Positions 21,593 to 47,137 of a stretch of DNA of 64,000 bases are shown here, one piece after another. Source of the stretch: Escherichia phage vB_EcoM_G17; the sequence record MK327931.1; one strand, 5' to 3'. A model generated the notes under the pieces. That model saw nothing but the letters and a program-made list of their open reading frames with translations, did not search any database and was not told the DNA's origin. Position numbers and translations under genes: made by a program. The stretch's first letter is position 1, and each line of letters opens with the position of its first letter.

Positions 21593-22143
21593 AATAGTTC
21601 CTTATACATATGATGTACTTTACAAATCTCATTATAGTATTTCATATCAATGTCATTTGTATTAAAAACGGAAACAGACAATACTGCTAACTTATCAATT
21701 AAGTAATTATTATCGGCGTACTGTTTTAACTTATTGAACATATAGATGCATTTTATACTTAATTCATCATGCAACACACTGTTCTGAAAAATATTCTCTT
21801 CAGTATTAGGAGATAAGTAATCTTCAATTATATACGATAAACTACTATCGCAATCTTTATAGATTGAAATTGATGGATGTAATGTGTCATACATTACACT
21901 AAACAGATCACCGTCATATGTGGATATTAAACTATTATTGGAAACAGTAGGATGATAATATTTCAGTACTGAAAACTTTGAACAATCAGTGCAGTAAAAA
22001 TGATCCATCCCTCGACGACTTTCGTATGAGAATAGTTTACTTGTATATTCAATCCCTTTGGTGCGACGGATTGTTTCATGCATTTCTGCACATTGCATTA
22101 AAATTACCATACGTTCAAACGCAAGATCTAAATCATCGTACAT
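21583..22143 (-). CDS. hypothetical protein, FamA paralog
   Basis: FamA core EENIFQNSVLH. Confidence 0.65.
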   Translation of the reverse strand: MYDDLDLAFERMVILMQCAEMHETIRRTKGIEYTSKLFSYESRRGMDHFYCTDCSKFSVLKYYHPTVSNNSLISTYDGDLFSVMYDTLHPSISIYKDCDSSLSYIIEDYLSPNTEENIFQNSVLHDELSIKCIYMFNKLKQYADNNYLIDKLAVLSVSVFNTNDIDMKYYNEICKVHHMYKELLCQ

Positions 22144-22324
22144 AACGGATATCCTTCTTCAACGAATTAATATATTCCAAAATAACTTGTTCCTGATATT
22201 GGGTTCCCAAGTACATCAGTACTTTCAACTCTTTGAATTCAGTACTATATGAGTCTGTTTGCATCATTCTAGTAGAATATATATTGAATAGTTTAGCAAT
22301 ATCATCTTGGTCTATTATTTTCAT
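22133..22324 (-). CDS. hypothetical small protein, FamB paralog
   Basis: FamB core YLGTQYQEQV; isolated FamB pair embedded in FamA block. Confidence 0.6.
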   Translation of the reverse strand: MKIIDQDDIAKLFNIYSTRMMQTDSYSTEFKELKVLMYLGTQYQEQVILEYINSLKKDIRYVR

Positions 22325-22520
22325 TAACCCTCTTCTGTATTAGTTCCTGTAAGTGCTGAATATAACCCTTCATTGCAACATCCTGTTTGTTAGAGCCAAC
22401 GAAGAACAAGAGCTTAAAGTCATGGTAATCCATTTTTGGTTTAGTAGTGAACCATATGTCCCACACTGCACTCACAGTTCTCATGTATTCAATTCGATTA
22501 AATGTTTTTGAATACTTCAT
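22302..22520 (-). CDS. hypothetical small protein, FamB paralog
   Basis: FamB variant core FVGSNKQDVA. Confidence 0.55.
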   Translation of the reverse strand: MKYSKTFNRIEYMRTVSAVWDIWFTTKPKMDYHDFKLLFFVGSNKQDVAMKGYIQHLQELIQKRVNENNRPR

Positions 22521-25924: not shown

Positions 25925-25925
25925 T

Positions 25926-34765: not shown

Positions 34766-35158
34766 CTAATCTTTCCATTTAATAGGATACTCCTTTCCTT
34801 GTACTATATATGACAAAATCCATCCGTAATGAATAGGATGATTTTTGTCTGAATCAGGAATAAAATATAAAGCTGTACTTGGATTATGACTGAATAAATC
34901 TTTATTGTCAAATGTAAAATGTGATAATATAATTTTCCTTGCACTTGGACGAATAACATTCTTAACACTGAACTCTGAACCTTTGTATTTCTCCGATAAT
35001 TCAAATAATGCATCTGTAATTAAATCACTGATCTCTTGGATTACAAAATTCTGATAAAATGCATTAATCTCTTTTAACTCTGTATACAATTCACTTCTGG
35101 TATTCAAAAGAAATATTACTTTTTTAAGATCCTGAACTATTTCTGGATTCATATTCAT
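34766..35158 (-). CDS. hypothetical protein
   Basis: ORF track. Confidence 0.55.
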   Translation of the reverse strand: MNMNPEIVQDLKKVIFLLNTRSELYTELKEINAFYQNFVIQEISDLITDALFELSEKYKGSEFSVKNVIRPSARKIILSHFTFDNKDLFSHNPSTALYFIPDSDKNHPIHYGWILSYIVQGKEYPIKWKD

Positions 35159-35390
35159 TTATCTCATTCTGTAACTTAAGCATCAAAATTTGCATATTAA
35201 TTTTTTGTAAAAGGTGCTTGATAAATTTCTGTGCCATTTCTTCTTGTTCTTTTGTACCAAGATAAAATAACAGATTAAATTCTGATAATCGCAAAGAAAA
35301 ATCTTCATCACCACCCTTTAAACAAAAATCCCTGTACTTTGTAGCGTACAAATATTGGTTTACCTTTTTATAATACCCTGTGTTTTGCAT
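35124..35390 (-). CDS. hypothetical small protein, FamB paralog
   Basis: FamB core YLGTKEQEEM. Confidence 0.6.
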   Translation of the reverse strand: MQNTGYYKKVNQYLYATKYRDFCLKGGDEDFSLRLSEFNLLFYLGTKEQEEMAQKFIKHLLQKINMQILMLKLQNEINEYESRNSSGS

Positions 35391-35578
35391 ACTATCTCCG
35401 TTCGCAACGAATTTATATAATAATGAACAAATTGTTCTTGTGAACGTGTTCCAAGAAAAATAAACATATCAAACTCTGTTGTTTTTAAATTCAATGCATC
35501 TTTTGTAAAATTCCTGTTGAATTCCCTGTACTTTTGGGTCTTCCATTCTTGATTAATTGTCTTGTATATCGATTTCAA
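35360..35578 (-). CDS. hypothetical small protein, FamB paralog
   Basis: FamB core FLGTRSQEQF. Confidence 0.6.
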   Translation of the reverse strand: MKSIYKTINQEWKTQKYREFNRNFTKDALNLKTTEFDMFIFLGTRSQEQFVHYYINSLRTEIVCKTQGIIKR

Positions 35579-35879
35579 TGATTCTCCCTGATGTACCTTG
35601 TATTAGCTTATCATACATATCGAGCATCACTTTTTGAATACTAATTAGTACTGGCATCGTGCAAATATCAATGTCGTATACTAAGCTGTACTGGAATAAT
35701 TCATCTTCCTGCATTTGTACTAAATTAGGTAAAGGATAATTGTCTGCCTCTTCATCCTGGTACTTGAAATGCATAACACCATCCTTTTTGTACAAAAGAA
35801 TGTCAATATCACCTAACTCATCAGCATAACCAAAAATACATATACTCGATGTTTTTGCTATATTAAATTTCATCTCCAC
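35553..35879 (-). CDS. hypothetical protein, FamA paralog
   Basis: FamA core EDELFQYSLVY. Confidence 0.65.
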   Translation of the reverse strand: MEMKFNIAKTSSICIFGYADELGDIDILLYKKDGVMHFKYQDEEADNYPLPNLVQMQEDELFQYSLVYDIDICTMPVLISIQKVMLDMYDKLIQGTSGRIIEIDIQDN

Positions 35880-36115
35880 CTCTCTCCGTCAGCACAAGAG
35901 TACTGGTACGTTGTCGTTAGGGTAGGGACCATGTTTGTAATGGGCATATTATTAACAATAACGGTAACAGGCATAAGAATCGTCTCTACTCTACTCTGTC
36001 CTGTCCTTGTACAATTCATCTTCTGCATTTCATCTGAATCCATGAAATACAATACAAATGGTGCAATCCCAAGAACAATACACAAGACGATAAGGAAATT
36101 TAAAAAATTTAACAT
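35870..36115 (-). CDS. hypothetical small membrane protein
   Basis: ORF track; hydrophobic N-terminal segment LNFLIVLCIVLGIAPFVLYF. Confidence 0.5.
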   Translation of the reverse strand: MLNFLNFLIVLCIVLGIAPFVLYFMDSDEMQKMNCTRTGQSRVETILMPVTVIVNNMPITNMVPTLTTTYQYSCADGERWR

Positions 36116-36144
36116 AATTTTTACCCTATGATTAACGTTAGTGT

Positions 36145-36173
36145 ACTATATCAGTAATGAAAAGTACTGTCAA
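36145..36173 (-). promoter_or_regulatory. internal sigma70-like promoter
   Basis: -35 TTGACA 36168-36173, 17-bp spacer, -10 TATAGT 36145-36150. Confidence 0.4.
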
Positions 36174-36174
36174 G

Positions 36175-36579
36175 CTAGTATTGCACTGTTCTAATGAAAG
36201 TACCTTTACTCATGGATTTAAGCTTATGAACCTCTTCCTGCATACCCTTAATTAACCCTAAAGGTATAGGTAAATCATGTACTAAGCTGTACTGAAAGTA
36301 TTCTTCTTCAGATAAAGTACTAACATCTGGAACGCCAATTTTAGTTATATAATCTTGATGTGTTGACCAATAAATTATATCTTCAGTACTATTGTACTCC
36401 CCATATACTGAACAATATTGATGAATATCTTTCCTGTACCCTTGAGCAATAAAGAACTTATCTAATGCATTACCAGCATTAATAGAATTTACTTCGATTG
36501 TCACAGTACTTGAGCTTGTATAACTCTTAATATTATCAGTACTCTTAATACTCAACGATGTGTTCTTCATAATCACCAT
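36175..36579 (-). CDS. hypothetical protein, FamA paralog
   Basis: FamA core EEEYFQYSLVH. Confidence 0.65.
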   Translation of the reverse strand: MVIMKNTSLSIKSTDNIKSYTSSSTVTIEVNSINAGNALDKFFIAQGYRKDIHQYCSVYGEYNSTEDIIYWSTHQDYITKIGVPDVSTLSEEEYFQYSLVHDLPIPLGLIKGMQEEVHKLKSMSKGTFIRTVQY

Positions 36580-36889
36580 TAGGCTCCTGTTTAGATTCTT
36601 TCATTAGTACTATCATCTTATGTACTAATGGCATAGGGAACTCTAAATCCCATACTAATGATTCCTGGAAGTATTCCTCTGGTGATAAAGTACTTAAATC
36701 TTTAATATCAACGTGCTTGTATATTTTATTTTCGTAATTAACAAATGATATATATAAATCACTAACATAAGAATCATAGGTAATTGTGAATGGCTTACCC
36801 TTGTAATCCATTACATCTCTACATAGACTACTTTTGATATATGTATGTTCAAATGATTTATATACCTTGAGTTGTATATTAGTTTTCAT
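36545..36889 (-). CDS. hypothetical protein, FamA paralog
   Basis: FamA core PEEYFQESLVW. Confidence 0.65.
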   Translation of the reverse strand: MKTNIQLKVYKSFEHTYIKSSLCRDVMDYKGKPFTITYDSYVSDLYISFVNYENKIYKHVDIKDLSTLSPEEYFQESLVWDLEFPMPLVHKMIVLMKESKQEPNGDYEEHIVEY

Positions 36890-37154
36890 ATTTCTCTTTA
36901 TTAGCTTGTTTGGTTTTATAGTGAATTAAATCTATTAATGTAATCAAGTACAACGTCAAATAGTACTCTTGTTGATCTGTACCTAATGATACAAAGAACT
37001 TGTGCTCATAGATTAAAACCTGTTTCTCTTCAAATGGACATTTAATCCTCTGTATAGGCTTAAGTAAATGATAGTACTTATTAAATCTATGATACATTTC
37101 TAGTTCTGTCAGTACTTTCATATTAAACACATACTCCATTAGCTGTAGCATCAC
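36879..37154 (-). CDS. hypothetical small protein, FamB paralog
   Basis: FamB core SLGTDQQEYY. Confidence 0.6.
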   Translation of the reverse strand: MMLQLMEYVFNMKVLTELEMYHRFNKYYHLLKPIQRIKCPFEEKQVLIYEHKFFVSLGTDQQEYYLTLYLITLIDLIHYKTKQANKEKYEN

Positions 37155-37344
37155 GTAAAGCTGTCAAATACTTCTGTACGGCTTGCTCTTGCTTATTTGT
37201 ACCTAAAAGTATATACATCCATAATTCACTGTAATGTACATCTTGTGTATAAGGGTCATTGTAACTTTTTGATAATATAGCATCAAATTCAGATGCATGA
37301 ACCCTTGTGAACTTAAGAATATCTTGTTGTGTTATGATTCTCAT
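37123..37344 (-). CDS. hypothetical small protein, FamB paralog
   Basis: FamB core LLGTNKQEQA. Confidence 0.65.
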   Translation of the reverse strand: MRIITQQDILKFTRVHASEFDAILSKSYNDPYTQDVHYSELWMYILLGTNKQEQAVQKYLTALRDATANGVCV

Positions 37345-37556
37345 ATCTTTTCCTGTACAATCTGTATAAGAATACCTATGTGTGAATTAACAGTTCTCTC
37401 TTGATGCTGTGTTCCTAAGAGTGTCAGTACTATCATATCTGAACGCAAAAGATTTTTTTCAAGTTCACTTATATCAGTTCTTGAATCAAGTGCCATATAT
37501 TTGTGATTATTCTTCCTGAATAGTGCCAAGTACTCTTGGTTTGATATTATCTTCAT
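37341..37556 (-). CDS. hypothetical small protein, FamB paralog
   Basis: FamB core LLGTQHQERT. Confidence 0.65.
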   Translation of the reverse strand: MKIISNQEYLALFRKNNHKYMALDSRTDISELEKNLLRSDMIVLTLLGTQHQERTVNSHIGILIQIVQEKI

Positions 37557-37768
37557 AGTTTACTTTTAATTTCCATTAAAAGTGCTCTAATATGCTCATT
37601 GACAAATCGCTCTTGGGAATCTGTGTCTAGGGTGAGAAGCATTCTTAAATCGGAACCTCTGATGGTATATTCTAAATCATTCTTTGATTCTCGCATAAGT
37701 TTCTGAAAGGATGAGAAGTGTAATCCCATGAGTTCAATGTATTCTGCTGTTCCTAGTGGTTTTGGCAT
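37553..37768 (-). CDS. hypothetical small protein, FamB paralog
   Basis: FamB core TLDTDSQERF. Confidence 0.65.
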   Translation of the reverse strand: MPKPLGTAEYIELMGLHFSSFQKLMRESKNDLEYTIRGSDLRMLLTLDTDSQERFVNEHIRALLMEIKSKL

Positions 37769-37986
37769 TTTAGTTCAATAGCTCGTTTAAGTGTATTAAT
37801 ATAATCTTTAATGTCGTGTTCTTGATAGTTCGTTCCAAGGGTAGCTAGAACATAGACTTCATTTCTCTTAATAATTTTATCCATATCTGGTATATCTGAT
37901 GTGTTAATGACGAAGAGCTTCAAAAACAGTCCATTTATGATTGTTAGGTATTCTACATCGGTAATGATTTTCATTTGCATTTGCAT
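37753..37986 (-). CDS. hypothetical small protein, FamB paralog
   Basis: FamB core TLGTNYQEHD. Confidence 0.65.
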   Translation of the reverse strand: MQMQMKIITDVEYLTIINGLFLKLFVINTSDIPDMDKIIKRNEVYVLATLGTNYQEHDIKDYINTLKRAIELKCQNH

Positions 37987-38192
37987 TTTCTCAGTACTGA
38001 TTCTTTAAGTTCATTGATGTAGCACTCTACATATTCTTCTTGTAGGTTTGTTCCGATATGTAACAGTACTCTTAAATCTGCTCTCAGTACTTCTTTGTCA
38101 TCTTCATCTATATCAGACAGTGTTATGTTTAAGAATTTACTTGAACTCTCTATAAGTAATATTACTGAATCACCTTTGCTTAAAATTTTCAT
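37971..38192 (-). CDS. hypothetical small protein, FamB paralog
   Basis: FamB core HIGTNLQEEY. Confidence 0.65.
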   Translation of the reverse strand: MKILSKGDSVILLIESSSKFLNITLSDIDEDDKEVLRADLRVLLHIGTNLQEEYVECYINELKESVLRKCKCK

Positions 38193-38400
38193 AATCTCTT
38201 TTTGCTTTCCTCGCCAAAAGGTACATATACGATTCTTCGTATTGTGCTTGGTAGTTTGTGTTTAAGAGTCGAAACAACTTCTGTTCTGCTAGAACTAGTT
38301 GCTTATCTTCATAACAACGGTAGCGTATCAACTTTTTGTATTCGATGTTGATTACATCCATTACTATAAGCCCATGTTCATCATCTGTCAAGTGTTTCAT
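38170..38400 (-). CDS. hypothetical small protein, FamB paralog
   Basis: FamB core LLNTNYQAQY. Confidence 0.65.
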   Translation of the reverse strand: MKHLTDDEHGLIVMDVINIEYKKLIRYRCYEDKQLVLAEQKLFRLLNTNYQAQYEESYMYLLARKAKRDYENFKQR

Positions 38401-38639
38401 GCATTTTTTCTTTTTCTTATATGTTTAGTTAAAAGGTATATTAGTTTTCTGATGTATTCTTCTTGATAGTTTGTTCCTAAGAGTGCAAGAAGTTTTGCTT
38501 CAACTAAAGCTAGTTGTCGTTCTTCGAATGTGTGTTCCAGTATGTACTTGGGGTTTGATTTTTTAGCGTAAGCACTATTAGTCTTCATTACAATCTTATG
38601 ATATTCATTAGCTGTTAGGATTTTTAAATACTTGATCAT
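38397..38639 (-). CDS. hypothetical small protein, FamB paralog
   Basis: FamB core LLGTNYQEEY. Confidence 0.65.
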   Translation of the reverse strand: MIKYLKILTANEYHKIVMKTNSAYAKKSNPKYILEHTFEERQLALVEAKLLALLGTNYQEEYIRKLIYLLTKHIRKRKNA

Positions 38640-38859
38640 GTATCTTTTCCTTTATAGAGAATTTAAGATATCGAAGCATACTTTCAATGTAATACTCTTG
38701 TCTGTCAGTGCCAAGAAAGTACATGAGTTGAATGTATAAAACTTCTGCACTCCTTTCCGCTGGAGACTTGTTTGTGTCGTTTGGAAGTTGATTTGTATGT
38801 TTTCTTGATTTAATTAGTCGTTCTTTTAACTCATCGTCTGTTAAGTATTTCATTTTCAT
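38608..38859 (-). CDS. hypothetical small protein, FamB paralog
   Basis: FamB core FLGTDRQEYY. Confidence 0.65.
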   Translation of the reverse strand: MKMKYLTDDELKERLIKSRKHTNQLPNDTNKSPAERSAEVLYIQLMYFLGTDRQEYYIESMLRYLKFSIKEKIHDQVFKNPNS

Positions 38860-39085
38860 TTACTTTTTCCTTAATAGTGATTTTAAGATATCTAATCATA
38901 CGTGCAACATATTCCTCTTGTCTATCAGTTCCCAGAAGATATGGTAGTGATTGGAATAATACTTCTGCACTCCTTTCTGCTGGGGTTTGGTTTAGGTCAA
39001 TTGGACGTTTATTGGTATATCTCTTGGCACGAACTAATCTCTCGACGTATTCATTATAGGTTAAGTATATCATTTCATTTTGCAT
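38831..39085 (-). CDS. hypothetical small protein, FamB paralog
   Basis: FamB core LLGTDRQEEY. Confidence 0.65.
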   Translation of the reverse strand: MQNEMIYLTYNEYVERLVRAKRYTNKRPIDLNQTPAERSAEVLFQSLPYLLGTDRQEEYVARMIRYLKITIKEKVNENEILNRR

Positions 39086-39305
39086 TTACTTTTTCCTTAA
39101 TACTCATTATAAGATGTTCAATCATATTTTGAACCATAAATTCTTGTTTATCAGTTCCAAGAACGTATGGTAGCTTCTGAAACAATACATTTGCAGATAC
39201 TTCAGATATTGATTGATTTGGAACGAACTTAAGAGTAATGTTTTTGGTTTTTAACATCTTCTCTTGAAATTCTTCATTCGTTAAGTATATCATTTCATTT
39301 TGCAT
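39075..39305 (-). CDS. hypothetical small protein, FamB paralog
   Basis: FamB core VLGTDKQEFM. Confidence 0.65.
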   Translation of the reverse strand: MQNEMIYLTNEEFQEKMLKTKNITLKFVPNQSISEVSANVLFQKLPYVLGTDKQEFMVQNMIEHLIMSIKEKVNAK

Positions 39306-39521
39306 TTACATTCTCTCATATATATTTTGGGTTAAAAGGTCAATCCAGATTTCCACATATCGTTGTTGGTGTTGCGTCCCTAACAGTACACCCAACTTAG
39401 CTTCACACTCTAATAACAATCTGGTTTTGTATGGTAGACTTTGGAATCCTATAGTAGCATCTAATTTGGTAATTGCATAGTTGATTCGGATGAATCTTTC
39501 TTGCAATGTGATGTTGTTCAT
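39306..39521 (-). CDS. hypothetical small protein, FamB paralog
   Basis: FamB core LLGTQHQQRY. Confidence 0.65.
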   Translation of the reverse strand: MNNITLQERFIRINYAITKLDATIGFQSLPYKTRLLLECEAKLGVLLGTQHQQRYVEIWIDLLTQNIYERM

Positions 39522-39808
39522 TTCTTAGTACACCTCAGTGGTTGGGTCATTTGATAAAAGTACAGCTTACCTTTGATTTCCAGTAGTAACTCCGCGATTA
39601 AGCGATTTACTTCTGTATCTTGATAGTTTGTTCCTAAGAATACACCCATCTTTAACTCACGCATCATAATCATTTTCTTACTGTGTTGAATTTCTGGGTT
39701 GTGATAGATTGTATTACGTTTGTGCGTAATTTTTGTCATACGCTCGGTATATTCATCTTTACTTAAATTGATCATTTGCATGTTCATCAACCTCACATTT
39801 ATTTTCAA
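39518..39808 (-). CDS. hypothetical small protein, FamB paralog
   Basis: FamB core FLGTNYQDTE. Confidence 0.65.
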   Translation of the reverse strand: MKINVRLMNMQMINLSKDEYTERMTKITHKRNTIYHNPEIQHSKKMIMMRELKMGVFLGTNYQDTEVNRLIAELLLEIKGKLYFYQMTQPLRCTKK

Positions 39809-39810
39809 TA

Positions 39811-40077
39811 CTATTCTTTAGTTTGTAGATATAGTTTTCTTCCAATGTATCTCTTAAGTGCGATTATGTATTCATCTACATAATACTCCTGATAGTTTGT
39901 TCCTATGAATGCACCCACCTTTAACTCAAGTTTCATAATCATCTTATTTCCGTGTTTAATGACTTCTCCGTGATGGATTTCATTAAGTCCAGGTGCAATT
40001 TTCACCAGGCGTTCTTTATATTTTGCTTGAGATAATTTAATCATTTTCATGTTAATTACCCTTACATTTATTTTCAA
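39811..40077 (-). CDS. hypothetical small protein, FamB paralog
   Basis: FamB core FIGTNYQEYY. Confidence 0.65.
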   Translation of the reverse strand: MKINVRVINMKMIKLSQAKYKERLVKIAPGLNEIHHGEVIKHGNKMIMKLELKVGAFIGTNYQEYYVDEYIIALKRYIGRKLYLQTKE

Positions 40078-40282
40078 TACTATTCATGAGTTCTATAAGA
40101 TAGTTTTCTACCTTACCTTCCTGATAGTTAGTCCCTAGGAAGTTGCACAACACGGCTTCTATGATTTTGATTTTCCTGATATCAGGCTTCAATCTTTTGT
40201 TATTGAATATTTGAATCCTTATATCTCTGGATGCATTTAAACGTTTTTGATATTCATGGTAAGTTAAATGAATCATTTTCAT
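40052..40282 (-). CDS. hypothetical small protein, FamB paralog
   Basis: FamB core FLGTNYQEGK. Confidence 0.65.
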   Translation of the reverse strand: MKMIHLTYHEYQKRLNASRDIRIQIFNNKRLKPDIRKIKIIEAVLCNFLGTNYQEGKVENYLIELMNSIENKCKGN

Positions 40283-40497
40283 TTACGTTTAACCTCTCGC
40301 TGGAGGGCATCAATTAACATCAGTACAGCATTCTCTTGATAGTTTGTTCCTAAGACTGAAAGCATCTTTATCTCATTTACTAAAATCAACTTCTTTGAGG
40401 GTTCAATAATGTGACTATCATAAACGGCCTTACGTGCTGGATAAGTTTTCGCCAGTATAACATAAAATTCGTCTTTACTTAAATTAATCATTTGCAT
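40279..40497 (-). CDS. hypothetical small protein, FamB paralog
   Basis: FamB core VLGTNYQENA. Confidence 0.65.
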   Translation of the reverse strand: MQMINLSKDEFYVILAKTYPARKAVYDSHIIEPSKKLILVNEIKMLSVLGTNYQENAVLMLIDALQREVKRK

Positions 40498-40706
40498 TTA
40501 CTTTTAACCTCTTTCTGTAGAGCGTCAATCCATAGATCTACATACATTTGTTGATAGTTTGTGCCTAAGAGTGCACCTACATAGAGTTCAGTTACTAGTG
40601 CGTGCTTAAGGTTAGCTTGGATGCTCTTATCGCTTGATATCATTCTCCTTCTGCTTCCACATGTTTTCAGGAGTCTGATGTATTCAAAGCCTTGTAAATT
40701 TCTCAT
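40488..40706 (-). CDS. hypothetical small protein, FamB paralog
   Basis: FamB core LLGTNYQQMY. Confidence 0.65.
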   Translation of the reverse strand: MRNLQGFEYIRLLKTCGSRRRMISSDKSIQANLKHALVTELYVGALLGTNYQQMYVDLWIDALQKEVKSKCK

Positions 40707-40918
40707 ATTTTGGATACCACCTTGTTACGTAAGGAACTTAATAATACGTCAGTGTAGATGTTTTGATAGTTTGTCCCTACGAATACACCCAACTTCATTT
40801 CAGCTATTATAACACATTTGTCCTCTTGTGCAATAGATTTGTTTAACACAATACTATACACTTTTGATTTGATAGTTTGTAACCTCCAATGATACTGATA
40901 CTCATTAAGGATTATCAT
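40703..40918 (-). CDS. hypothetical small protein, FamB paralog
   Basis: FamB core FVGTNYQNIY. Confidence 0.65.
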   Translation of the reverse strand: MIILNEYQYHWRLQTIKSKVYSIVLNKSIAQEDKCVIIAEMKLGVFVGTNYQNIYTDVLLSSLRNKVVSKI

Positions 40919-41165
40919 TCTCTTTCCTCCAGATTTCGGTTCTCATGTGTTGGCAGTGTGCATCAATATATTGCTCTATCGATCTGGCGATTGCTGTTTT
41001 ATCAGTGCCTGTCATCAGTACAAGCATCTCGGCCTCACAGTGAAGTAAACGCATGATATCATAGGGTAATATTTCAGATACCGTGTCATAGTGTTTCTGT
41101 GCCAGTGTCTGCAATAGTTTACAATACATTTTGTGATTTAGTCTTTGTCGCATTGTTTCTTCCAT
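40905..41165 (-). CDS. hypothetical small protein, divergent FamB paralog
   Basis: Variant core LMTGTDKTAI. Confidence 0.55.
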   Translation of the reverse strand: MEETMRQRLNHKMYCKLLQTLAQKHYDTVSEILPYDIMRLLHCEAEMLVLMTGTDKTAIARSIEQYIDAHCQHMRTEIWRKENDNP

Positions 41166-41410
41166 TCTCTTCTGGCTTGGCGGGTTTTATCTGATATTTC
41201 GTTTCTCAATGCAGAGATATATCGTAGAGTGAACAGTTCTTGATAGTTAGTCCCTATGAATTTATTAAGATATACATCAGCGTTGACGATATCAGCTTCA
41301 CGGGAATTATAAAGTTTATTGTTAGTGCGAAGGGTGTTTAGAAGAGAGAAGAGGGCAGTCTGATACTCAGTGCTTGATAAAGTTTTCATATTTTTCCACA
41401 ATTCGTTCAT
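41138..41410 (-). CDS. hypothetical small protein, FamB paralog
   Basis: FamB core FIGTNYQELF. Confidence 0.65.
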   Translation of the reverse strand: MNELWKNMKTLSSTEYQTALFSLLNTLRTNNKLYNSREADIVNADVYLNKFIGTNYQELFTLRYISALRNEISDKTRQARREWKKQCDKD

Positions 41411-41624
41411 TTAGTTTTATCTGTATAAGATCCATTAGTTGTTCAAGATAATCGGTACAATATTTCTCTTGATATTGGGTTCCCACAAAGTACAGCAACC
41501 ATAGCTCATGAACTTTAACTTTCATCTCGTTCCATGAAAGTGCATCGTCATCGTAGATTACTCTTGCTTCTGGGGTGAGCTTTCGAATTCTAAGTGAATA
41601 TTCATCGTCCGTCAAGTGTTTCAT
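41367..41624 (-). CDS. hypothetical small protein, FamB paralog
   Basis: FamB core FVGTQYQEKY. Confidence 0.65.
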   Translation of the reverse strand: MKHLTDDEYSLRIRKLTPEARVIYDDDALSWNEMKVKVHELWLLYFVGTQYQEKYCTDYLEQLMDLIQIKLNERIVEKYENFIKH

Positions 41625-41779
41625 TTACATTTATCCCTTATTAGATTTGTGAGTGCAACTATGTGTTCATGGATATAAAAATTTTGATGAGAAGTTCCAA
41701 GAAAGTACAGCATCCATCCCTCACTCTGCTCGACTTCTAGTTTAGTATCGAGTTGGTCAGATATGTTAATGAAAACCAT
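41621..41779 (-). CDS. hypothetical small protein, FamB paralog (52 aa)
   Basis: Below ORF-track cutoff; reading by eye gives MVFINISDQ...FLGTSHQNFY; fills gap in array with ATGA/TAATG coupling. Confidence 0.5.
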   Translation of the reverse strand: MVFINISDQLDTKLEVEQSEGWMLYFLGTSHQNFYIHEHIVALTNLIRDKCK

Positions 41780-42036
41780 TAGTTCTTTTCCTTTCTTTCT
41801 ATTTGTTTCATAAGAACATCGATATACTCACCCGCAAACCTATTCTGATACTGCGTCCCCATGAATTCCAACATCCATACTTCAGCAACCTTTTCTTCAA
41901 TTTCAGTCCATTGTAAGTACATCATAGTGAAGTAAATGGTGTTCTCTTTTTTTCTGGCACTCTTAGCACGGGCCTCGTATTCAAAGTTATTAATGATGTT
42001 CATTACATTTGTCCATAATGTAATTCTTGAGTGCAA
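41779..42036 (-). CDS. hypothetical small protein, FamB paralog
   Basis: FamB core FMGTQYQNRF. Confidence 0.65.
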   Translation of the reverse strand: MHSRITLWTNVMNIINNFEYEARAKSARKKENTIYFTMMYLQWTEIEEKVAEVWMLEFMGTQYQNRFAGEYIDVLMKQIERKEKN

Positions 42037-42217
42037 CTATGTGTGCAATAACATACTCTTCCTGGAAGTTCGTCCCCAGTACAGCCAACATGCGTACATC
42101 GGTGGTGTTTATCTTGTGTTCCAATCGAGTTAAACCTTTTATTTGTAAAAGGGTATCGTATTTGTTTAATGCATCAATGATAATTCTCATCTTCTCAATA
42201 TTACTTAAATGTTTCAT
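41990..42217 (-). CDS. hypothetical small protein, FamB paralog
   Basis: FamB core VLGTNFQEEY. Confidence 0.65.
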   Translation of the reverse strand: MKHLSNIEKMRIIIDALNKYDTLLQIKGLTRLEHKINTTDVRMLAVLGTNFQEEYVIAHIVALKNYIMDKCNEHH

Positions 42218-42426
42218 AGTTTACTCTTAATGTAGTTCTGAAGTTCAATTAAGTATTTCCCTACATAATACTCCTGAAAGTCTGTATCCAAAAATGCACC
42301 CAAAAGTAAATCCTTCTCCATTGCCCTTGATAAGTTAAGGTCTGCATTTGAAAGGTATATAAGTAATATTTCAGTCTGGACAGAATTAAAACGTTTCTTA
42401 TATTCTTCAGGTGTTAATATAATCAT
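42214..42426 (-). CDS. hypothetical small protein, FamB paralog
   Basis: FamB core FLDTDFQEYY. Confidence 0.65.
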   Translation of the reverse strand: MIILTPEEYKKRFNSVQTEILLIYLSNADLNLSRAMEKDLLLGAFLDTDFQEYYVGKYLIELQNYIKSKL

Positions 42427-42638
42427 AATTTGCTCCTGATGTATTTCTCAAGAGATGACAAATACTTTTCCTCATAATACTCCTGATAGTCTGTTCCCAA
42501 GAATGCACCCATAAGTATTTCATTTTCCAATACCTCGGCTAAGTTTAAATCAGACGTCTCTTCGTATATTATGAGGATTTCAAGTTGTCTGGCAGCGATG
42601 CGTTCAGTATATTGATATGAGTTTTCTATAATAATCAT
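42423..42638 (-). CDS. hypothetical small protein, FamB paralog
   Basis: FamB core FLGTDYQEYY. Confidence 0.65.
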   Translation of the reverse strand: MIIIENSYQYTERIAARQLEILIIYEETSDLNLAEVLENEILMGAFLGTDYQEYYEEKYLSSLEKYIRSKL

Positions 42639-42844
42639 ATTTTACTCTTAATATCTTCTATTAAAAATCGAATCCATTCTTCAACATAATCTTCCTGATG
42701 GTTTGTGTTCAGTACAGCCAACATGCGGATCTCTGCTCTTGCAACTTCAATTTCAGTTTTAGGCAGGTCTTTGCTGATATCCACCATTAAGTCCATGTAT
42801 TTCAAGATAAGACCGTATGATTGGGTTCGTGTTATAGTTTTCAT
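42635..42844 (-). CDS. hypothetical small protein, FamB paralog
   Basis: FamB core VLNTNHQEDY. Confidence 0.65.
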   Translation of the reverse strand: MKTITRTQSYGLILKYMDLMVDISKDLPKTEIEVARAEIRMLAVLNTNHQEDYVEEWIRFLIEDIKSKI

Positions 42845-43041
42845 TGTTTCCTCGTGGACAATATTTTATTTTTCAATGTATCCATATATTGCCACACCCA
42901 TCTACCCTGATAGTTTGTTCCCAATGTAATCAAAAGGTATAACTCCATTCGTTCTACGTGTGTGTCTGTGTTGTAAATCTTTACGTAGTTTTTACGTAAC
43001 AGTGATTGATATTCTTCTTTATTTAAAATACGCATTTTCAT
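42841..43041 (-). CDS. hypothetical small protein, FamB paralog
   Basis: FamB core TLGTNYQGRW. Confidence 0.65.
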   Translation of the reverse strand: MKMRILNKEEYQSLLRKNYVKIYNTDTHVERMELYLLITLGTNYQGRWVWQYMDTLKNKILSTRKQ

Positions 43042-43265
43042 AGTTTACTCGTTATATCTTCAATTAAATACCAAATCCAATCGTTGACATACCTTTCCTG
43101 AAAGTTAGTTCCAATGAATAGTGCCATAATTAATTCACGCTTATAGGCAATACCACGGTCATGGGACTTATACATTATCATAGCCATGTTATTGATAAGT
43201 CTTTCGTGGTGCTGTTCTTTAGTTAAAATACGCATAGGGACTCCCTTAAAATTAATATCAATCAT
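43038..43265 (-). CDS. hypothetical small protein, FamB paralog (first gene of array)
   Basis: FamB core FIGTNFQERY; AAGGGAG SD before internal ATG (MRILTKEQ). Confidence 0.6.
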   Translation of the reverse strand: MIDINFKGVPMRILTKEQHHERLINNMAMIMYKSHDRGIAYKRELIMALFIGTNFQERYVNDWIWYLIEDITSKL

Positions 43266-43484
43266 ATTTTATACGATTCATATAAAAAGTCAATAACATT
43301 TTATTCGTAATACCCCTTTATCGAAGTCGCTAAGGTTACCCGCCCTTTAGCCCCCTACGCATTTTGCCATAGTCCAATCCCTTTTATTTCAAAAAAGTCA
43401 AGGGATTACCTATGCATTTTTTTAACGCATAATTTTAAAAACGCCTTGACTTTTTTCTGAATCAGTACTAGATCCCTTTACGCA
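43266..43484 (-). promoter_or_regulatory. non-coding control region upstream of the paralog super-array
   Basis: About 220 bp without ORF; TTGACT -35-like boxes, inverted repeat AAAAAAGTCAAGG/CCTTGACTTTTTT, repeated ACGCAT-containing motifs. Confidence 0.45.
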
Positions 43485-44183: not shown

Positions 44184-44246
44184 GGAGGGAGAACCATTTC
44201 CCCCTCTCTATGTAAAACATTATACTTGATTCTAAGTACTATGCAA
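44184..44246 (-). promoter_or_regulatory. sigma70-like promoter + leader hairpin cassette (PeSL-like)
   Basis: -35 TTGCAT 44241-44246, 16-bp spacer, -10 TATAAT 44219-44224, GC hairpin about 44184-44208. Confidence 0.6.
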
Positions 44247-44253
44247 GTACTTT

Positions 44254-44586
44254 TTACATTTTAATACCTGGATTCAGGTAGCGGTGAGATCCATATTCTG
44301 GATCGGTTTCGGTCCAGTACTGTAAATCGATAGTACCTTTCGCGTTAATCTTGTCTACCAGCTTATTCATCTTAGTGTATACTACGTCAGCATCGATGCG
44401 TTTAAAGCCAGTAGCTTTAGTGAAGTAGTAGTGATTTGCTTCACTATCATTAAGGATATACCGAGCACCGTTTGCAGTCTGTGCGATAATGATTGAGTAT
44501 TCTACTTCCCGATCCAGACCGTCGATGAATACAGATGAAACATTGGTACGGATGAAAGCTTTAACGATAGCGATTGAAGTACTCAT
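44254..44586 (-). CDS. hypothetical protein
   Basis: ORF track; AGGAGA SD. Confidence 0.65.
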   Translation of the reverse strand: MSTSIAIVKAFIRTNVSSVFIDGLDREVEYSIIIAQTANGARYILNDSEANHYYFTKATGFKRIDADVVYTKMNKLVDKINAKGTIDLQYWTETDPEYGSHRYLNPGIKM

Positions 44587-44606
44587 TTTGAATCTCCTAA
44601 CTTTGT

Positions 44607-44668
44607 GGGCCGTCGCACCATTGCCGCCCTACGAGATACATTATTGCAGTACTGATATACTTTGTCAA
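44607..44668 (-). promoter_or_regulatory. sigma70-like promoter + leader hairpin cassette
   Basis: -35 TTGACA 44663-44668, weak -10 (AATAAT/CAATAA), GC-rich hairpin about 44607-44629. Confidence 0.5.
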
Positions 44669-44737
44669 TACTTTTTTTATTAATAGTTTTCACCCCACCA
44701 GCAGATAGTTACTCACCGTTATTAACTATATATTTTA

Positions 44738-44830
44738 GATACACTCCTGCACCCAGTGGGCTAGTTTTTGTCTATGCGTATATAATAGCAAAGGGACTGA
44801 CCGGAGTCAATCCCTTTTTTTATTCTTTTT
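44738..44830. repeat. repeated intergenic element copy A with bidirectional terminator
   Basis: Motif GATACACTCCTGCACCCAGTGGGCTAG 44738-44764, then hairpin GGGACTGACCGGAGTCAATCCC 44793-44814 and T-run; recurs near 47485-47580, 50758-50840, 54042-54130. Confidence 0.6.
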
Positions 44831-44832
44831 TG

Positions 44833-45033
44833 TTAGATGATTCTCCAATCTTCTACGATCATGGTAAGATAACGGACCATCGATTCAAGTGATTCGAATT
44901 CCCGATAGTCTGCCGCTCCACCAGCGGTACAAGTACAGCCGATTAAACCATTTTGTAATTCCTTAATCTGTACATCGATAAGGTTGGCTTTAGCTTCTTT
45001 CAGTACTTCAACCAGGGCGATAGCGATAGACAT
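44833..45033 (-). CDS. hypothetical protein
   Basis: ORF track; GGAG SD; own promoter cassette. Confidence 0.55.
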   Translation of the reverse strand: MSIAIALVEVLKEAKANLIDVQIKELQNGLIGCTCTAGGAADYREFESLESMVRYLTMIVEDWRII

Positions 45034-45056
45034 AATGTTTTACTCCAAACTATTGA

Positions 45057-45116
45057 CGGGAGAACTATTCCCCCGCTCTATGTAAAACATTATACATTAC
45101 TGGTTAGTACTGTCAA
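45057..45116 (-). promoter_or_regulatory. sigma70-like promoter + leader hairpin cassette
   Basis: -35 TTGACA 45111-45116, 16-bp spacer, -10 TATAAT 45089-45094, hairpin CGGGGGAATAGTTCTCCCG 45057-45075. Confidence 0.6.
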
Positions 45117-45122
45117 ATAGTT

Positions 45123-45380
45123 TTATGAAATATCTTCGATGTAGTCGGCCCATTTCATTTTTTCAGTACTGTCAATGGCTACCGGATTATTTGGATCAAA
45201 CCATTCACCATTCCCGCAATACATACCCACGGCAACGGTTTTATATCCATCCTGTGCAGTACTCCACGACATAGCACGATAGATATGGCCTTTAACTGGT
45301 TGCAATACTGGTAATGTTTTATGGTCTTCTACGTAGGCCATAGCTTGAGGATTTACCCGATATTGTGTGAACTGTTCCAT
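45123..45380 (-). CDS. hypothetical protein
   Basis: ORF track. Confidence 0.65.
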   Translation of the reverse strand: MEQFTQYRVNPQAMAYVEDHKTLPVLQPVKGHIYRAMSWSTAQDGYKTVAVGMYCGNGEWFDPNNPVAIDSTEKMKWADYIEDIS

Positions 45381-45408
45381 TATGTTTCCCCTTGTAGTTA
45401 GTAAAGTT

Positions 45409-45437
45409 ATTACATCAGTACTATCAAGCTATGTCAA
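45409..45437 (-). promoter_or_regulatory. sigma70-like promoter (no leader hairpin)
   Basis: -35 TTGACA 45432-45437, 17-bp spacer, -10 TGTAAT 45409-45414. Confidence 0.5.
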
Positions 45438-45456
45438 TAGTACTGAAATAAAACTT

Positions 45457-45681
45457 TTAGATTAGATTATTGATGCCGTTGATGGTAGACTCGCTTTCTT
45501 CTTTCTCCCATTGGCGGTAGTACTTCCATGCTTCATGATATGTGGCGATTAGTTCATCTTTTTGATCCTGAGTACATGCCAGTACTGAATCACGGTGAGC
45601 GGTTTTATAGATAGAATCGAATGATTTCTTCTCTTCTGCCAGGTTAGCTACTTCCCGCATCAGTTCATCAAAGTTAGCCAT
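45457..45681 (-). CDS. hypothetical protein
   Basis: ORF track; AAGGAG SD. Confidence 0.65.
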   Translation of the reverse strand: MANFDELMREVANLAEEKKSFDSIYKTAHRDSVLACTQDQKDELIATYHEAWKYYRQWEKEESESTINGINNLI

Positions 45682-45699
45682 TTTATTACTCCTTTTAGT

Positions 45700-45756
45700 G
45701 GGGGAGGATATCTCCCCCTATGCAAAACATTATACTTTGTTTTAGTTATTATGCAA
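45700..45756 (-). promoter_or_regulatory. sigma70-like promoter + leader hairpin cassette
   Basis: -35 TTGCAT 45751-45756 (overlaps stop of 45749..46012), 16-bp spacer, -10 TATAAT 45729-45734, hairpin GGGGGAG..CTCCCCC 45700-45718. Confidence 0.6.
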
Positions 45757-46012
45757 GTACTTTTTTCATATAAAGATTATATTCTACACCGCCGTAACCT
45801 TCTACGATGATATGTTTTGCGTTATCACGTTTGCACATAGTGAAACCGTTGTTGATGTGTTCTGCATTTTCCAGGGCGACATCACCGATAGCGGCACATA
45901 CGGCACTAATAACAGTATTCCGCAAAGTACTGGTATCATTAGCGGTCATAGTAGTTTGCAGTACTACGTTGTCGTATACGTGTGCATTGATAGTGATTTC
46001 GATAGTGTTCAT
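45749..46012 (-). CDS. hypothetical protein
   Basis: ORF track; GGAG SD. Confidence 0.65.
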   Translation of the reverse strand: MNTIEITINAHVYDNVVLQTTMTANDTSTLRNTVISAVCAAIGDVALENAEHINNGFTMCKRDNAKHIIVEGYGGVEYNLYMKKVLA

Positions 46013-46030
46013 GGTGTATCTCCTGGACTG

Positions 46031-46091
46031 GCGGGAGAACTATTCCCCCGCTCTATGTAAAACATTATACGTTAATCTAACTACAATGCAA
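46031..46091 (-). promoter_or_regulatory. sigma70-like promoter + leader hairpin cassette
   Basis: -35 TTGCAT 46086-46091, 16-bp spacer, -10 TATAAT 46064-46069, hairpin 46031-46051. Confidence 0.6.
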
Positions 46092-46098
46092 GTACTTT

Positions 46099-46290
46099 TT
46101 AAATTTTATTTCCGATATAGTCCGGTCTATTCTTTTCGGTCATACGCTTTGCTAATGTTTGCATATGGCTTATTGCGTTTAATGTGTCTTCCTCCAGGGA
46201 TGAATCAACATAATCAGGATCATTCTTCACCTTGCAATGATTATGATAGCGTAGTACTGCCAGTACTTTTTTAACTTCTTCTACTGTCAT
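46099..46290 (-). CDS. hypothetical protein
   Basis: ORF track; ATGA-coupled to 46287..46559. Confidence 0.6.
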   Translation of the reverse strand: MTVEEVKKVLAVLRYHNHCKVKNDPDYVDSSLEEDTLNAISHMQTLAKRMTEKNRPDYIGNKI

Positions 46291-46559
46291 AATAAGTACC
46301 CCACTTCGTTAGCTTTCAGGTTAGTATCAATCATCAGTGGATTTTTGTAGTTCACAAAACGATTAGTTTTCTCGATAGCGAATCCCATATAATCCAGCTT
46401 ACTAACAGTACATTCATTCTTAAAAACTTCTTTCGCTGCATCGATGGCTGATTGCATGGATAACCGACCATCTAAATTAATGTTTCCAAATGATCCACCA
46501 GCAGAAGTAGGATTACCGTTCATATCTTTAATGATCATAGTAGCGGAGTAGCTGGACAT
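46287..46559 (-). CDS. hypothetical protein
   Basis: ORF track; AAGGA SD. Confidence 0.65.
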   Translation of the reverse strand: MSSYSATMIIKDMNGNPTSAGGSFGNINLDGRLSMQSAIDAAKEVFKNECTVSKLDYMGFAIEKTNRFVNYKNPLMIDTNLKANEVGYLL

Positions 46560-46581
46560 AATTTTGTTTCCTTTTAGTATC

Positions 46582-46640
46582 GGGGAGAACTATTCTCCCC
46601 TTGATGTAAACTATTATACAGTACTGATATACTTTGTCAA
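46582..46640 (-). promoter_or_regulatory. sigma70-like promoter + leader hairpin cassette
   Basis: -35 TTGACA 46635-46640, 16-bp spacer containing CAGTACTG, -10 TATAAT 46613-46618, hairpin GGGGAGAA-TAG-TTCTCCCC 46582-46600. Confidence 0.65.
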
Positions 46641-46646
46641 ATACTT

Positions 46647-47054
46647 TTATTCGCCCATATAGATTAAGTTATCATCGCCTACATAGGGATCGCAAACGTT
46701 GATTTCTTCGCAGTACTTCGTGAATACATCGCCATAGTGACCTAAACCACGATCCCAAAAACCAGTTCCGTGACCTTCGCGGGTAAGGAACAGATCATGA
46801 CCAGCTTGCTCATAACCGTAATCAATAAACATACCGCGAACTACTTCCAGATCATTACCGTGTTTCTCAATGAAGCGAGAACATGCAATCACCGCCGCTT
46901 GACGTGCTTCATCAGATAACTCATAATCTTCCAGGTAATCGCCGTTATCATTATGTACAGTACTGAATTGCATAGCTTCAATGTAAGCTACAACCATTGC
47001 AGCATGATTTTTATCGTTAGTGATGTTCCGAGCGAGATTAGTAGTAGTAGACAT
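46647..47054 (-). CDS. hypothetical protein
   Basis: ORF track; AAGGAA SD. Confidence 0.7.
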   Translation of the reverse strand: MSTTTNLARNITNDKNHAAMVVAYIEAMQFSTVHNDNGDYLEDYELSDEARQAAVIACSRFIEKHGNDLEVVRGMFIDYGYEQAGHDLFLTREGHGTGFWDRGLGHYGDVFTKYCEEINVCDPYVGDDNLIYMGE

Positions 47055-47075
47055 GATTTTATTCCTTATTGTATT

Positions 47076-47134: not shown

Positions 47135-47137
47135 TAC

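Follow-up and report, generated by a model that had tools for sequence, protein, structure and literature searches.

Within the 64 kb that open its packaged genome (the window), Escherichia phage Sharanji (an Asteriusvirus of 350 kb) carries thirty-three intact genes for diverged copies of one soluble helical mini-domain of ~65-75 residues. Old tandem duplications produced this lineage-specific expansion, here called family B. Twenty-nine of the genes are consecutive (36879-43265) and two pairs lie apart from them (35124-35578 and 22133-22520). All were found on the minus strand where a preliminary description had placed them; its 'at least 33' becomes exactly 33 intact members, plus one 34-aa relic (Table 1).

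Membership and distribution

Comparison of the translated sequences confirmed a real family, whose homology is full-length and extends beyond the LGTxxQE core. A profile HMM of the 29 consecutive genes, run against every ORF of 40 aa or more in the window (355 in all), added exactly four: 22133-22324 (E=9e-12), 35360-35578 (1e-11), 22302-22520 (2e-7) and 35124-35390 (5e-7); the next-best ORF scored E=0.13. Leave-one-out profiles found 32 of the 33 members at E<=3e-8 over nearly the entire ~75-position model; the weakest is 40905-41165 (E=0.006), whose motif is interrupted by 6 inserted residues and which scores 1.3e-20 when part of the profile. Independently, BLASTP single-linkage clustering gave 32 of the 33 as the window's largest cluster, and a six-frame scan that ignores start codons returned the same 33 along with the C-terminal relic (39762-39863), which sits at a gene junction in a different reading frame. 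The proposal of a single paralog family thus stands, and so does its lack of relation to Family A (hhalign probability 0.1%). The N-terminal half, described as variable, is nevertheless alignable, with a conserved M-K-x-L-T-x-x-E-Y and E42; the sizes given (52-96 aa) hold as longest-ORF calls, family-consistent starts bringing the core to ~63-85 aa. In P0001, two adjacent members are naturally fused.

Table 1. Family B genes and associated features (window coordinates)
Feature	Position	Strand	Leave-one-out E	Remarks
Direct terminal repeat, inner boundary	43333			repeat = window 43333-64000, 20,668 bp
Candidate sigma-70-like promoter heading array	43266..43293	-		TTGACT, 16 nt, TAAAAT
Main tandem array	36879..43265	-		29 consecutive genes; 6,387 bp, ~220 bp/gene
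Member 1	43038..43265	-	9.1e-14	probable true start ATG 43235, preceded by ribosome-binding site AAGGGAG; protein begins MRILTKEQ
Member 2	42841..43041	-	9.8e-14	
Member 3	42635..42844	-	6.8e-19	
Member 4	42423..42638	-	5.4e-14	most acidic copy, net charge -8.5
Member 5	42214..42426	-	1e-17	
Member 6	41990..42217	-	1.3e-19	no 121Q ortholog
Member 7	41779..42036	-	3e-15	likely start 42003, matches GenBank
Member 8	41621..41779	-	4.5e-14	52 aa, N-terminally truncated; HMM positions 28-74 only
Member 9	41367..41624	-	7.3e-22	
Member 10	41138..41410	-	4.4e-13	
Member 11	40905..41165	-	0.006	most divergent copy; motif insertion (TGTDKTAIARSIEQ)
Member 12	40703..40918	-	9.3e-17	
Member 13	40488..40706	-	2e-19	
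Member 14	40279..40497	-	1.2e-18	no 121Q ortholog
Member 15	40052..40282	-	9.6e-21	first structure model
Member 16	39811..40077	-	7.1e-20	likely start 40050, matches GenBank
Relic, C-terminal helix	39762..39863	-		34 aa; E=0.0024, HMM positions 57-73
Member 17	39518..39808	-	6e-20	likely start 39781, matches GenBank
Member 18	39306..39521	-	2.6e-13	
Member 19	39075..39305	-	2.5e-16	55% identity to neighbour, closest paralog pair
Member 20	38831..39085	-	1.9e-18	
Member 21	38608..38859	-	1.3e-18	
Member 22	38397..38639	-	1.5e-16	no 121Q ortholog
Member 23	38170..38400	-	1.1e-9	unannotated in GenBank OR545507; 100% identity to 121Q ortholog
Member 24	37971..38192	-	3.3e-17	
Member 25	37753..37986	-	8.5e-20	
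Member 26	37553..37768	-	2.3e-13	
Member 27	37341..37556	-	1e-17	
Member 28	37123..37344	-	5.8e-14	
Member 29, last of main array	36879..37154	-	2.3e-12	family-consistent start near 37121
Member 30, displaced copy	35360..35578	-	4.5e-13	unannotated in GenBank
Member 31, displaced copy	35124..35390	-	1.9e-8	
Member 32, remote copy	22302..22520	-	3.4e-8	among Family A genes
Member 33, remote copy	22133..22324	-	1.9e-12	second structure model

Pfam, NCBIfam, PADLOC and PDB sequence profiles gave nothing consistent for the family, Foldseek against the PDB gave no match at E<3, and a BFVD search returned the family's own members only. This is not a known abundant domain: the only catalogue match is phrog_4148 (PHROGs v4, function unknown), which 32 of the 33 members match full-length (best E 1.3e-26); it is the same family, entered without function, structure or genomic description, and so brings no mechanistic information. 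An exhaustive scan of 1.84 billion representative proteins found just 100 clusters, and those traced all belong to Asteriusvirus or to an uncultured low-GC sister lineage, always in multiple copies. The phage records number 35, all of Escherichia or Salmonella jumbo phages; uncultured contigs carry 15 and 13 copies, and in that lineage the members are dispersed. Beyond Asteriusvirus-type jumbo phages and the uncultured sister lineage, family B is without a detectable relative.

The label 'highly unusual' has to be tempered, as large expansions of this kind are already on record: a sentence in Hua et al. 2017 (PMC5646251) mentions tandem gene arrays in jumbo phages 121Q and G, and Iyer et al. 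2021 (PMC7824862) report that zinc ribbons have expanded to ~35 copies in phage G. These jumbo-phage cases are likewise lineage-specific tandem expansions involving ~30 small genes. However, the sentence in Hua et al. names no family, fold or position, may mean the larger A/C family, and calls the genes 'very similar', whereas family B paralogs average 25% identity; and family B, which lacks conserved Cys/His, is no zinc ribbon.

Position, gene packing and turnover

The array lies directly after a 20.7-kb direct terminal repeat, key context absent from the preliminary description. The repeat boundary was mapped from the vB_Ec-M-J repeat annotation, with the physical genome end at 64000, and the size obtained is the same as that published for Sharanji (PMC11895373). 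The array starts 68-98 bp beyond the repeat and is co-oriented with it. The candidate promoter at its head, with a predicted transcript start near 43259, has an invariant -35 and a consensus-like -10 (TAAAAT or TATTAT) in 121Q and vB_Ec-M-J, and would, judged by its sequence, function as a promoter. Family B does head a leftward-transcribed block, as proposed; a single ~39 kb transcription unit stays unproven. There is one conserved promoter before the array, the 27 individual promoter cassettes of the repeat have no counterpart downstream of its boundary, and the promoter scan was not enriched over shuffles (62 sites found vs 64.7 expected).

The 29 consecutive genes, described as start/stop-coupled, are tightly packed: 12 of the 28 main-array junctions are 4-nt ATGA overlaps, and gaps are at most 29 nt across the 6,387 bp, so translation is probably coupled. 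None of the array products (gp467-489) was detected in the phAPEC6 virion proteome. Copy number differs among phages: 29 in the main array of Sharanji and, in fetched loci, 28 in phAPEC6, 26 in vB_Ec-M-J, 23 in 121Q and 20 (total) in Turkey5. In the close relative 121Q, the fetched locus holds 23+2 orthologous genes, and whole genes have been gained or lost between strains (Sharanji members 6, 14 and 22 are missing from 121Q). Between Sharanji and Turkey5, terminal-repeat proteins are 93-100% identical and array members only 25-70%, the drop coinciding with the repeat boundary.

It might be supposed that the paralogs hetero-oligomerise, or bind the A/C-family proteins encoded nearby, and so form a single intracellular structure or chaperone system, the whole array specifying one machine. 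Co-transcription and translational coupling would give roughly equal product amounts; even in the distant lineage the family stays linked to the C family and to a small membrane protein; and the fusion P0001 joins two adjacent members. A fixed machine is nevertheless ill-fitted by a copy number of ~20 to 29, by a Turkey5 repertoire that is almost wholly different, and by the dispersal of members in the uncultured lineage, and we consider it unlikely.

Conserved scaffold and varied surface

The AlphaFold model of member 15 (pLDDT 96.5, pTM 0.81) is a compact helical mini-domain, closed by a beta-bridge from the N-terminus to the threonine of LGT; member 33, only 25% identical to it, is modelled with the same topology (pLDDT 93.8). 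The helical fold proposed earlier is thereby upheld; the HTH-like version of it is not, as no HTH family or fold was matched and net charge ranges among members from -8.5 to +8.8. By column entropy, the alignment contains 27 low-entropy columns, which are core and caps, and 37 columns above 3 bits. The conserved residues form the scaffold: a hydrophobic core, the N-terminal strand (MKxLT), which pairs by a bridge with the LGT strand, and two helix caps, with S/T-x-x-E/Q capping boxes at T7..E10 and T51..Q54. Variation is not confined to one face of the domain, a possibility that the preliminary description had raised for checking; nearly the whole surface varies.

The charge range also bears on the supposition that these are nucleic-acid-binding regulators or nucleoid-remodelling proteins, that is, paralogous transcription factors or DNA-coating proteins, a role already proposed for the ~35 zinc ribbons of phage G. 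About half of the members are basic (pI >9), many with Lys/Arg-rich C-terminal tails, and jumbo phages do have lineage-specific expansions of small DNA-binding domains (PMC7824862). Fourteen members, however, are acidic or near neutral, K72 is the only conserved basic surface position, no Cys/His pattern is conserved, and the searches matched no family or fold that binds nucleic acid, zinc ribbons included; a role of this sort seems very unlikely.

Exposed positions nearly all differ among paralogs, yet are retained among orthologs. For orthologs, omega comes to 0.19-0.25 in the core, 0.43-0.50 at the surface and 0.36-0.38 overall (flanking genes, 0.12-0.21); within orthologs the surface is under purifying selection, each copy being maintained. 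Pooled omega nowhere reaches 1 and thus gives no sign of the positive selection that an arms race would predict. T51 and Q54 are strictly conserved, D, N and E never being seen there; such strictness may be the sign of an active or binding site common to the members, not of a cap alone, which would imply a common target and not diverse ones.

Selection on the copies can be set against another account, in which tandem duplication expands the genome to fill an enlarged capsid, by a ratchet, with mostly dispensable copies that individually have little function; this is how Hua et al. read the 121Q arrays (PMC5646251). Whole-gene gain and loss is compatible with such filling, as is the greater likeness of neighbouring copies than of distant ones (30% vs 25% identity, permutation p<1e-4). 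But all 33 ORFs are intact despite divergence to a mean paralog identity of 25%, omega is low (0.2 in the core), divergent members are confidently predicted to fold, and multiple copies are retained in the distant lineage; the account is most improbable.

A putative host-binding repertoire

The perspective preferred here, tentatively and with a chance that falls somewhat short of even, takes the family B proteins for a set of binding modules that act early and in the cytoplasm, in host takeover or anti-defence. Host RNA polymerase would transcribe the array early in infection, as one or few polycistronic messages; the output would be a cocktail of ~30 cytoplasmic mini-proteins; each might carry its own surface on the common scaffold, through which it would bind its own host partner or its own variant of a single partner; defence or abortive-infection effectors would be neutralised, or host machinery redirected; and, from phage to phage, whole units would be gained, lost or replaced, which would reshuffle the repertoire. 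Early timing is suggested by the position of the array, by its consensus-type promoter match and by analogy with known host-takeover modules: in T5 the pre-early genes, which lie in the terminal repeat; in SPO1 the module within its terminal redundancy; and in T7 the class I genes. These too comprise many small non-structural genes at or beside a long direct terminal repeat, transcribed, as the array would be, away from the genome end and from host-type promoters. They are, however, unrelated genes, whereas family B is a single expanded family; and in Sharanji the repeat has its own 27 cassettes, family B lying just outside it with a different promoter.

Comparable near-terminus arrays of diverged paralogs are found among large eukaryotic DNA viruses, in the African swine fever virus MGF, the poxvirus host-range families and the herpesvirus US22/SUKH arrays. 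Their copy number varies with the isolate, one scaffold carries diversified binding surfaces, and they are used against host antiviral responses. The herpesvirus US22 arrays and the bacterial SUKH immunity-protein arrays provide precedent for diversified binders (PMC3113570). These eukaryotic-virus families have no relation of sequence or fold to family B, which belongs to a bacterial virus, is a much smaller domain and has a putative role. Family B matched no known anti-defence protein or fold, and the narrow host range of Sharanji (PMC11895373) counts against the host-binding perspective.

The array might instead be a multi-immunity locus, each member neutralising a different toxin or exclusion factor of competing phages, prophages or the host, a reading that we regard as unlikely. 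Immunity proteins of the colicin and contact-dependent-inhibition type are helical and ~70-90 aa long, their core is conserved while their specificity surfaces are hypervariable, and they accumulate in arrays; orphan immunity genes of these systems accumulate in comparable fashion. Family B, small and helical, with a conserved scaffold, hypervariable surfaces and strain-variable copy number, resembles these proteins and the documented bacterial tandem arrays of diversified immunity genes (PMC3113570) in size, core, surfaces and arrangement. Yet the array has neither a toxin nor a nuclease gene linked to it, its neighbours are all of unknown function, and the mechanism overlaps that of host binding, the target alone being different.

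Membership and packing of the family-B genes

The leftward block of the window holds 33 genes for mini-proteins (family B), and every ORF listed in the preliminary description was recovered, all on the minus strand. A profile built from the 29 ORFs of the main array picks out exactly the four extra ORFs that had been proposed as members, at E values from 9e-12 to 5e-7; the next-best ORF falls at E=0.13. In leave-one-out tests 32 members are recognised at E<=3e-8, with matches spanning the full model of ~75 positions; the exception, 40905-41165 (E=0.006), carries an insertion within the motif. The largest cluster that BLASTP single-linkage clustering forms in the window contains 32 of the 33 members, and a six-frame scan independent of start positions returns the same 33, plus one short relic that is probably the scar of a unit-length deletion or recombination. 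Positions 36,000-85,999 of the record of Sharanji, the Asteriusvirus phage (OR545507.1) whose genome the window represents, hold no further copies. The resemblance extends beyond the short LGTxxQE core, because the N-terminal half of family B aligns too. That half had been described as simply variable. Over the alignment as a whole, 37 columns exceed 3 bits of entropy.

Features of the window bearing on family B
Feature	Coordinates	Strand	Remarks
Family-B main array	36879-43265	minus	29 consecutive genes
Outlying family-B pairs	35124-35578; 22133-22520	minus	two genes each
Family-B relic	39762-39863		34 aa; other reading frame, at a two-member junction; remnant of C-terminal helix
Family A/C examples	35553-35879; 36175-36579; 36545-36889; 17148-26417
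Promoter-like site heading the array	43293-43266	minus	conserved in three phages
Repeat/unique junction	43266-43484		220 nt
Direct terminal repeat	43333-64000		20,668 bp; mapped from vB_Ec-M-J annotation
Putative promoter cassettes	44209-63614		n=27, same orientation; ~60-95 nt; before small repeat genes

Packing is tight: 12 of the 28 junctions of the main array are ATGA overlaps, and the largest gap is at most 29 nt over 6,387 bp. GenBank labels all genes of the 36800-43300 region 'hypothetical protein'. Two members, 38170-38400 and 35360-35578, have no CDS in OR545507.1; the former has an annotated, 100% identical ortholog in the related phage 121Q.

Genes of family C (108-134 aa) are interleaved with family B; they share with Family A (147-186 aa) an EExxFQxS(L/I)V motif, the two being spread over 12252-36889. 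By hhalign the two match at a probability of 70% (E=4e-5), and on this alignment they are probably one superfamily. Family B stands apart: it is unrelated to Family A, as first supposed (hhalign probability 0.1%), and kinship with family C was likewise rejected (0.7%). A small predicted membrane protein (phrog_8826) is encoded at 35870-36115 and again at 4081-4344 of L002, a locus from an uncultured lineage; it adjoins family-B/C genes even in that distant lineage.

Known relatives and predicted fold

One alternative allowed for at the outset was that family B would prove to be a known abundant domain; none was found in Pfam, NCBIfam, PADLOC or the PDB. Searches of Pfam-A, NCBIfam and PADLOC gave no match common to many members, each family listed being matched by one of the 33 only (E>=5.8e-4), and PDB sequence profiles gave scattered single-member noise. 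Foldseek against the PDB returned no match with E<3, and BFVD returned Asteriusvirus members only. For known anti-defence proteins (anti-CRISPR, Ocr, Tad, Gad and similar), these searches gave no significant similarity in sequence or fold, with AcrIIC4 at E=6.8 and T4 Vs.4 at E=9.2. The sole catalogue match is phrog_4148, of unknown function: its profile matches all but one of the 33 members at E<=0.01, and the match to the first member (E=4.9e-24) covers positions 1-72 of 74. On the predicted structures, the mini-fold looks new.

The AlphaFold2 model of 40052-40282, computed from the 33-member alignment, reaches a pLDDT of 96.5 and a pTM of 0.81. It places helices at residues 8-17, 19-26, 33-46 and 54-73, with a beta-bridge from residue 4 to T51; the remote copy 22133-22324, 25% identical, is modelled with matching topology (pLDDT 93.8). 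Column analysis identifies a conserved hydrophobic core (L6, Y11, L15, I25, V38, L45, L49, Y57, V58, Y61, I62, L65 and I69); two of the helices open with a conserved S/T-x-x-E/Q capping box (T7..E10 and T51..Q54), and conservation further extends to G50 and, among polar residues, to E42, E55 and K72. Core, caps and the placement of strand and helix in the model suggest a structural reading of the LGTxxQE signature, as a strand-plus-helix-cap that would close the domain. The proteins are soluble, with GRAVY from -0.93 to +0.14.

One rival explanation supposes that family B binds nucleic acid. The helix-turn-helix-like fold once thought plausible for the family did not materialise: Pfam gives no consistent match of this type, a single TetR-type Foldseek match has E=3.4 and TM 0.44, and net charge spans -8.5 to +8.8; helix-turn-helix identity was rejected on these grounds. 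So was a zinc ribbon of the phage G type (CxxC...CxxC ligands), since members have 0-3 Cys and the alignment has no conserved Cys or His column. The lack of either signature, together with the span of charge, speaks against nucleic-acid binding.

Family B at the head of the unique region

Family B lies at the head of the unique region, adjoining the terminal repeat. The annotation of vB_Ec-M-J, a related phage, gives a direct terminal repeat at 1-21,525, with the first family-B gene 99 bp beyond; the repeat boundary aligns at window ~43,333, and position 1 aligns exactly at window 64,000, where the match stops. The repeat size published for Sharanji, 20,668 bp (PMC11895373), is exactly the mapped length, and in fEgEco12 restriction digests bore out repeats of ~21 kb (PMC13070987). 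Judged from this alignment, the packaged genome has its physical left end at window position 64000; boundary mapping and agreement in repeat size together make the window the first 64 kb from that end. All window genes are transcribed away from it, and G+C rises across the boundary at 43333 from ~0.31-0.33 to ~0.38.

Within the repeat, the 27 cassettes have a common layout: TTGCA/TTGACA and TATAAT, 17 nt apart, lead into a GGGGAGAA..TTCTCCCC hairpin, after which comes a ribosome-binding site. Each cassette probably acts as a strong early promoter whose 5' leader forms a hairpin; the remaining 43 kb of the window, downstream of the repeat, contains no such cassette. The promoter-like site heading the array is followed by AAGGGAG and an ATG at 43235, a start that restores the family N-terminus MRILT. 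Promoter-like sites in the scan number 62, against 64.7 expected from shuffles, and terminator-like sites 8, against 4.7, neither being enriched; of all scanned sites the argument uses the conserved array-head site alone. The repeat/unique junction hardly varies among Sharanji, 121Q and vB_Ec-M-J, while the flanking genes differ; it contains three copies of TTGACTTTTT and folds far more stably than its shuffled counterparts (z=-4.06). Its role may lie in packaging, cleavage or regulation.

The terminal repeat also contains an ORF (47581-48222) with a sub-threshold Pkinase match (E=0.003; 17.5 bits against a cut-off of 31.7), reminiscent of the T7 early kinase; its homolog in the related phage Turkey5 is annotated as a serine/threonine kinase. 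The window spans the origin of the Sharanji GenBank record. Around 27633, across that origin, the window is 77 bp shorter than circularised OR545507.1, which suggests that the deposited record retains an assembler k-mer overlap and has an arbitrary origin.

Turnover of the repertoire and possible roles

The 36800-43300 region is 100% identical to that of Sharanji (350,079 bp) and 82-97% identical to that of 34 other ~350-kb Escherichia/Salmonella jumbo phages of the PBECO4/121Q group; tblastn finds family B in 35 phage records, every one of them from a jumbo phage of Escherichia or Salmonella. When 1.84 billion representative proteins were scanned exhaustively with HMMER, 100 family-B clusters emerged, all but one consisting of proteins of 52-122 aa, with the motif in 99. 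For 38 of the 100, identity to some Sharanji member reaches 50% or more, which places about a third of known family-B diversity in a single genome. Divergent members come from uncultured contigs of ~29-30% GC, in which 15 copies crowd into 4.7 kb or 13 occur per 20 kb. The latter density is that of two 41-kb Logan contigs from a sister lineage (L007 and L010, ~29% G+C), where small genes precede arrays of 160-200-aa genes, as in Sharanji. A 236-aa gene neighbouring family B in an uncultured contig has no match among 50,697 phage records.

Paralogs average 25% identity (maximum 55%), a figure that rises to 30% between neighbouring copies (permutation p<1e-4); the low identity and the likeness of neighbours point to old tandem duplication rather than active expansion. 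The main array counts 29 copies in Sharanji, 28 in phAPEC6, 26 in vB_Ec-M-J and 23 in 121Q; Turkey5 has 20 family-B matches in total. Between Sharanji and Turkey5, repeat proteins are 93-100% identical whereas array members are 25-70% identical, the switch falling at the repeat boundary. Family B evolves at 2-3 times the rate of neighbouring genes. Among orthologs, overall omega is 0.36-0.38; it falls to 0.19-0.25 in the core, rises to 0.43-0.50 at the surface, and stands at 0.12-0.21 in flanking repeat genes. Turkey5 is uninformative here, with saturated synonymous sites and 3 orthologous pairs only. The surface values indicate that the individual surface of each copy is being kept. Family B is real, intact, selectively maintained and clade-restricted, a conserved scaffold with diversified surfaces. 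Two further, less likely explanations are that the array is filler DNA and that its paralogs are subunits that assemble together.

T5, SPO1 and T7 carry terminal modules for host takeover. By analogy with these, and with SUKH/US22 arrays, the array would be co-expressed early in infection and its products, as a set of specific binders, would serve host takeover or anti-defence; the conserved promoter-like site and the position beside the repeat would fit early transcription by the host polymerase. SUKH/US22 arrays are composed of diversified binders (PMC3113570). It is possible, though rather short of an even chance, that ~30 versions of an undescribed mini-fold, each with its own maintained surface and made together at the start of infection, work jointly as a polyvalent mixture of inhibitors, aimed at polymorphic defence effectors of the host or at host factors, with the whole repertoire swapped between phages whose genome ends are otherwise near-identical. 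If so, family B would be to a bacterial virus what multigene families for immune evasion are to herpesviruses, poxviruses and asfarviruses. Immunity to toxins or to superinfection would be another, less likely explanation; the literature yielded neither a functional study of family B nor an Asteriusvirus transcriptome. A role as virion or injected internal protein was rejected on published evidence from a relative rather than from Sharanji itself: the phAPEC6 orthologs gp467-489 are not among 62 virion proteins detected by mass spectrometry, in a proteome that includes a 4.7-kDa protein.

Jumbo phages carry mostly genes without an assigned function, those of their expanded paralog families among them. 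Family B belongs with the lineage-specific expansions of paralogs in large viruses, and it is catalogued as an unnamed PHROG. Hua et al. 2017 (PMC5646251) gave one sentence to tandem arrays in 121Q, which a 2026 review repeats; as far as we found, there is no earlier description of the predicted fold, of the contrast between scaffold and surface, of the array's exact placement at the boundary of the repeat or of the turnover in its repertoire. Family B comprises ~30 naturally occurring versions of a single, very small scaffold whose structure is predicted with confidence; they differ in surface and occupy a defined regulatory position. These variants, and the repertoire swaps between otherwise near-identical phages, make the question of function testable. 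Should the members prove to be specific binders, they would supply new proteins for anti-defence or host takeover, and binders could be engineered on their compact scaffold; a dispensable array would back tandem duplication as mere filling of enlarged capsids.

Two smaller observations concern other arrangements of paralogs. In a 154-aa protein from an ENA metagenome contig (P0001), the orthologs of 38397-38639 and 38170-38400 are fused head to tail; two adjacent family-B members have been united there by natural read-through or frameshift. Just beyond the window end, at 40.8-54.9 kb of the Sharanji record (4818-18855 of the fetched locus L011), lies an opposite-strand tandem array of ~12 paralogs, mostly of ~380 aa, one annotated as an RCC1-repeat protein; matched by position near the genome end rather than by alignment, these are probably the virion 'DNA condensation proteins' of phAPEC6.
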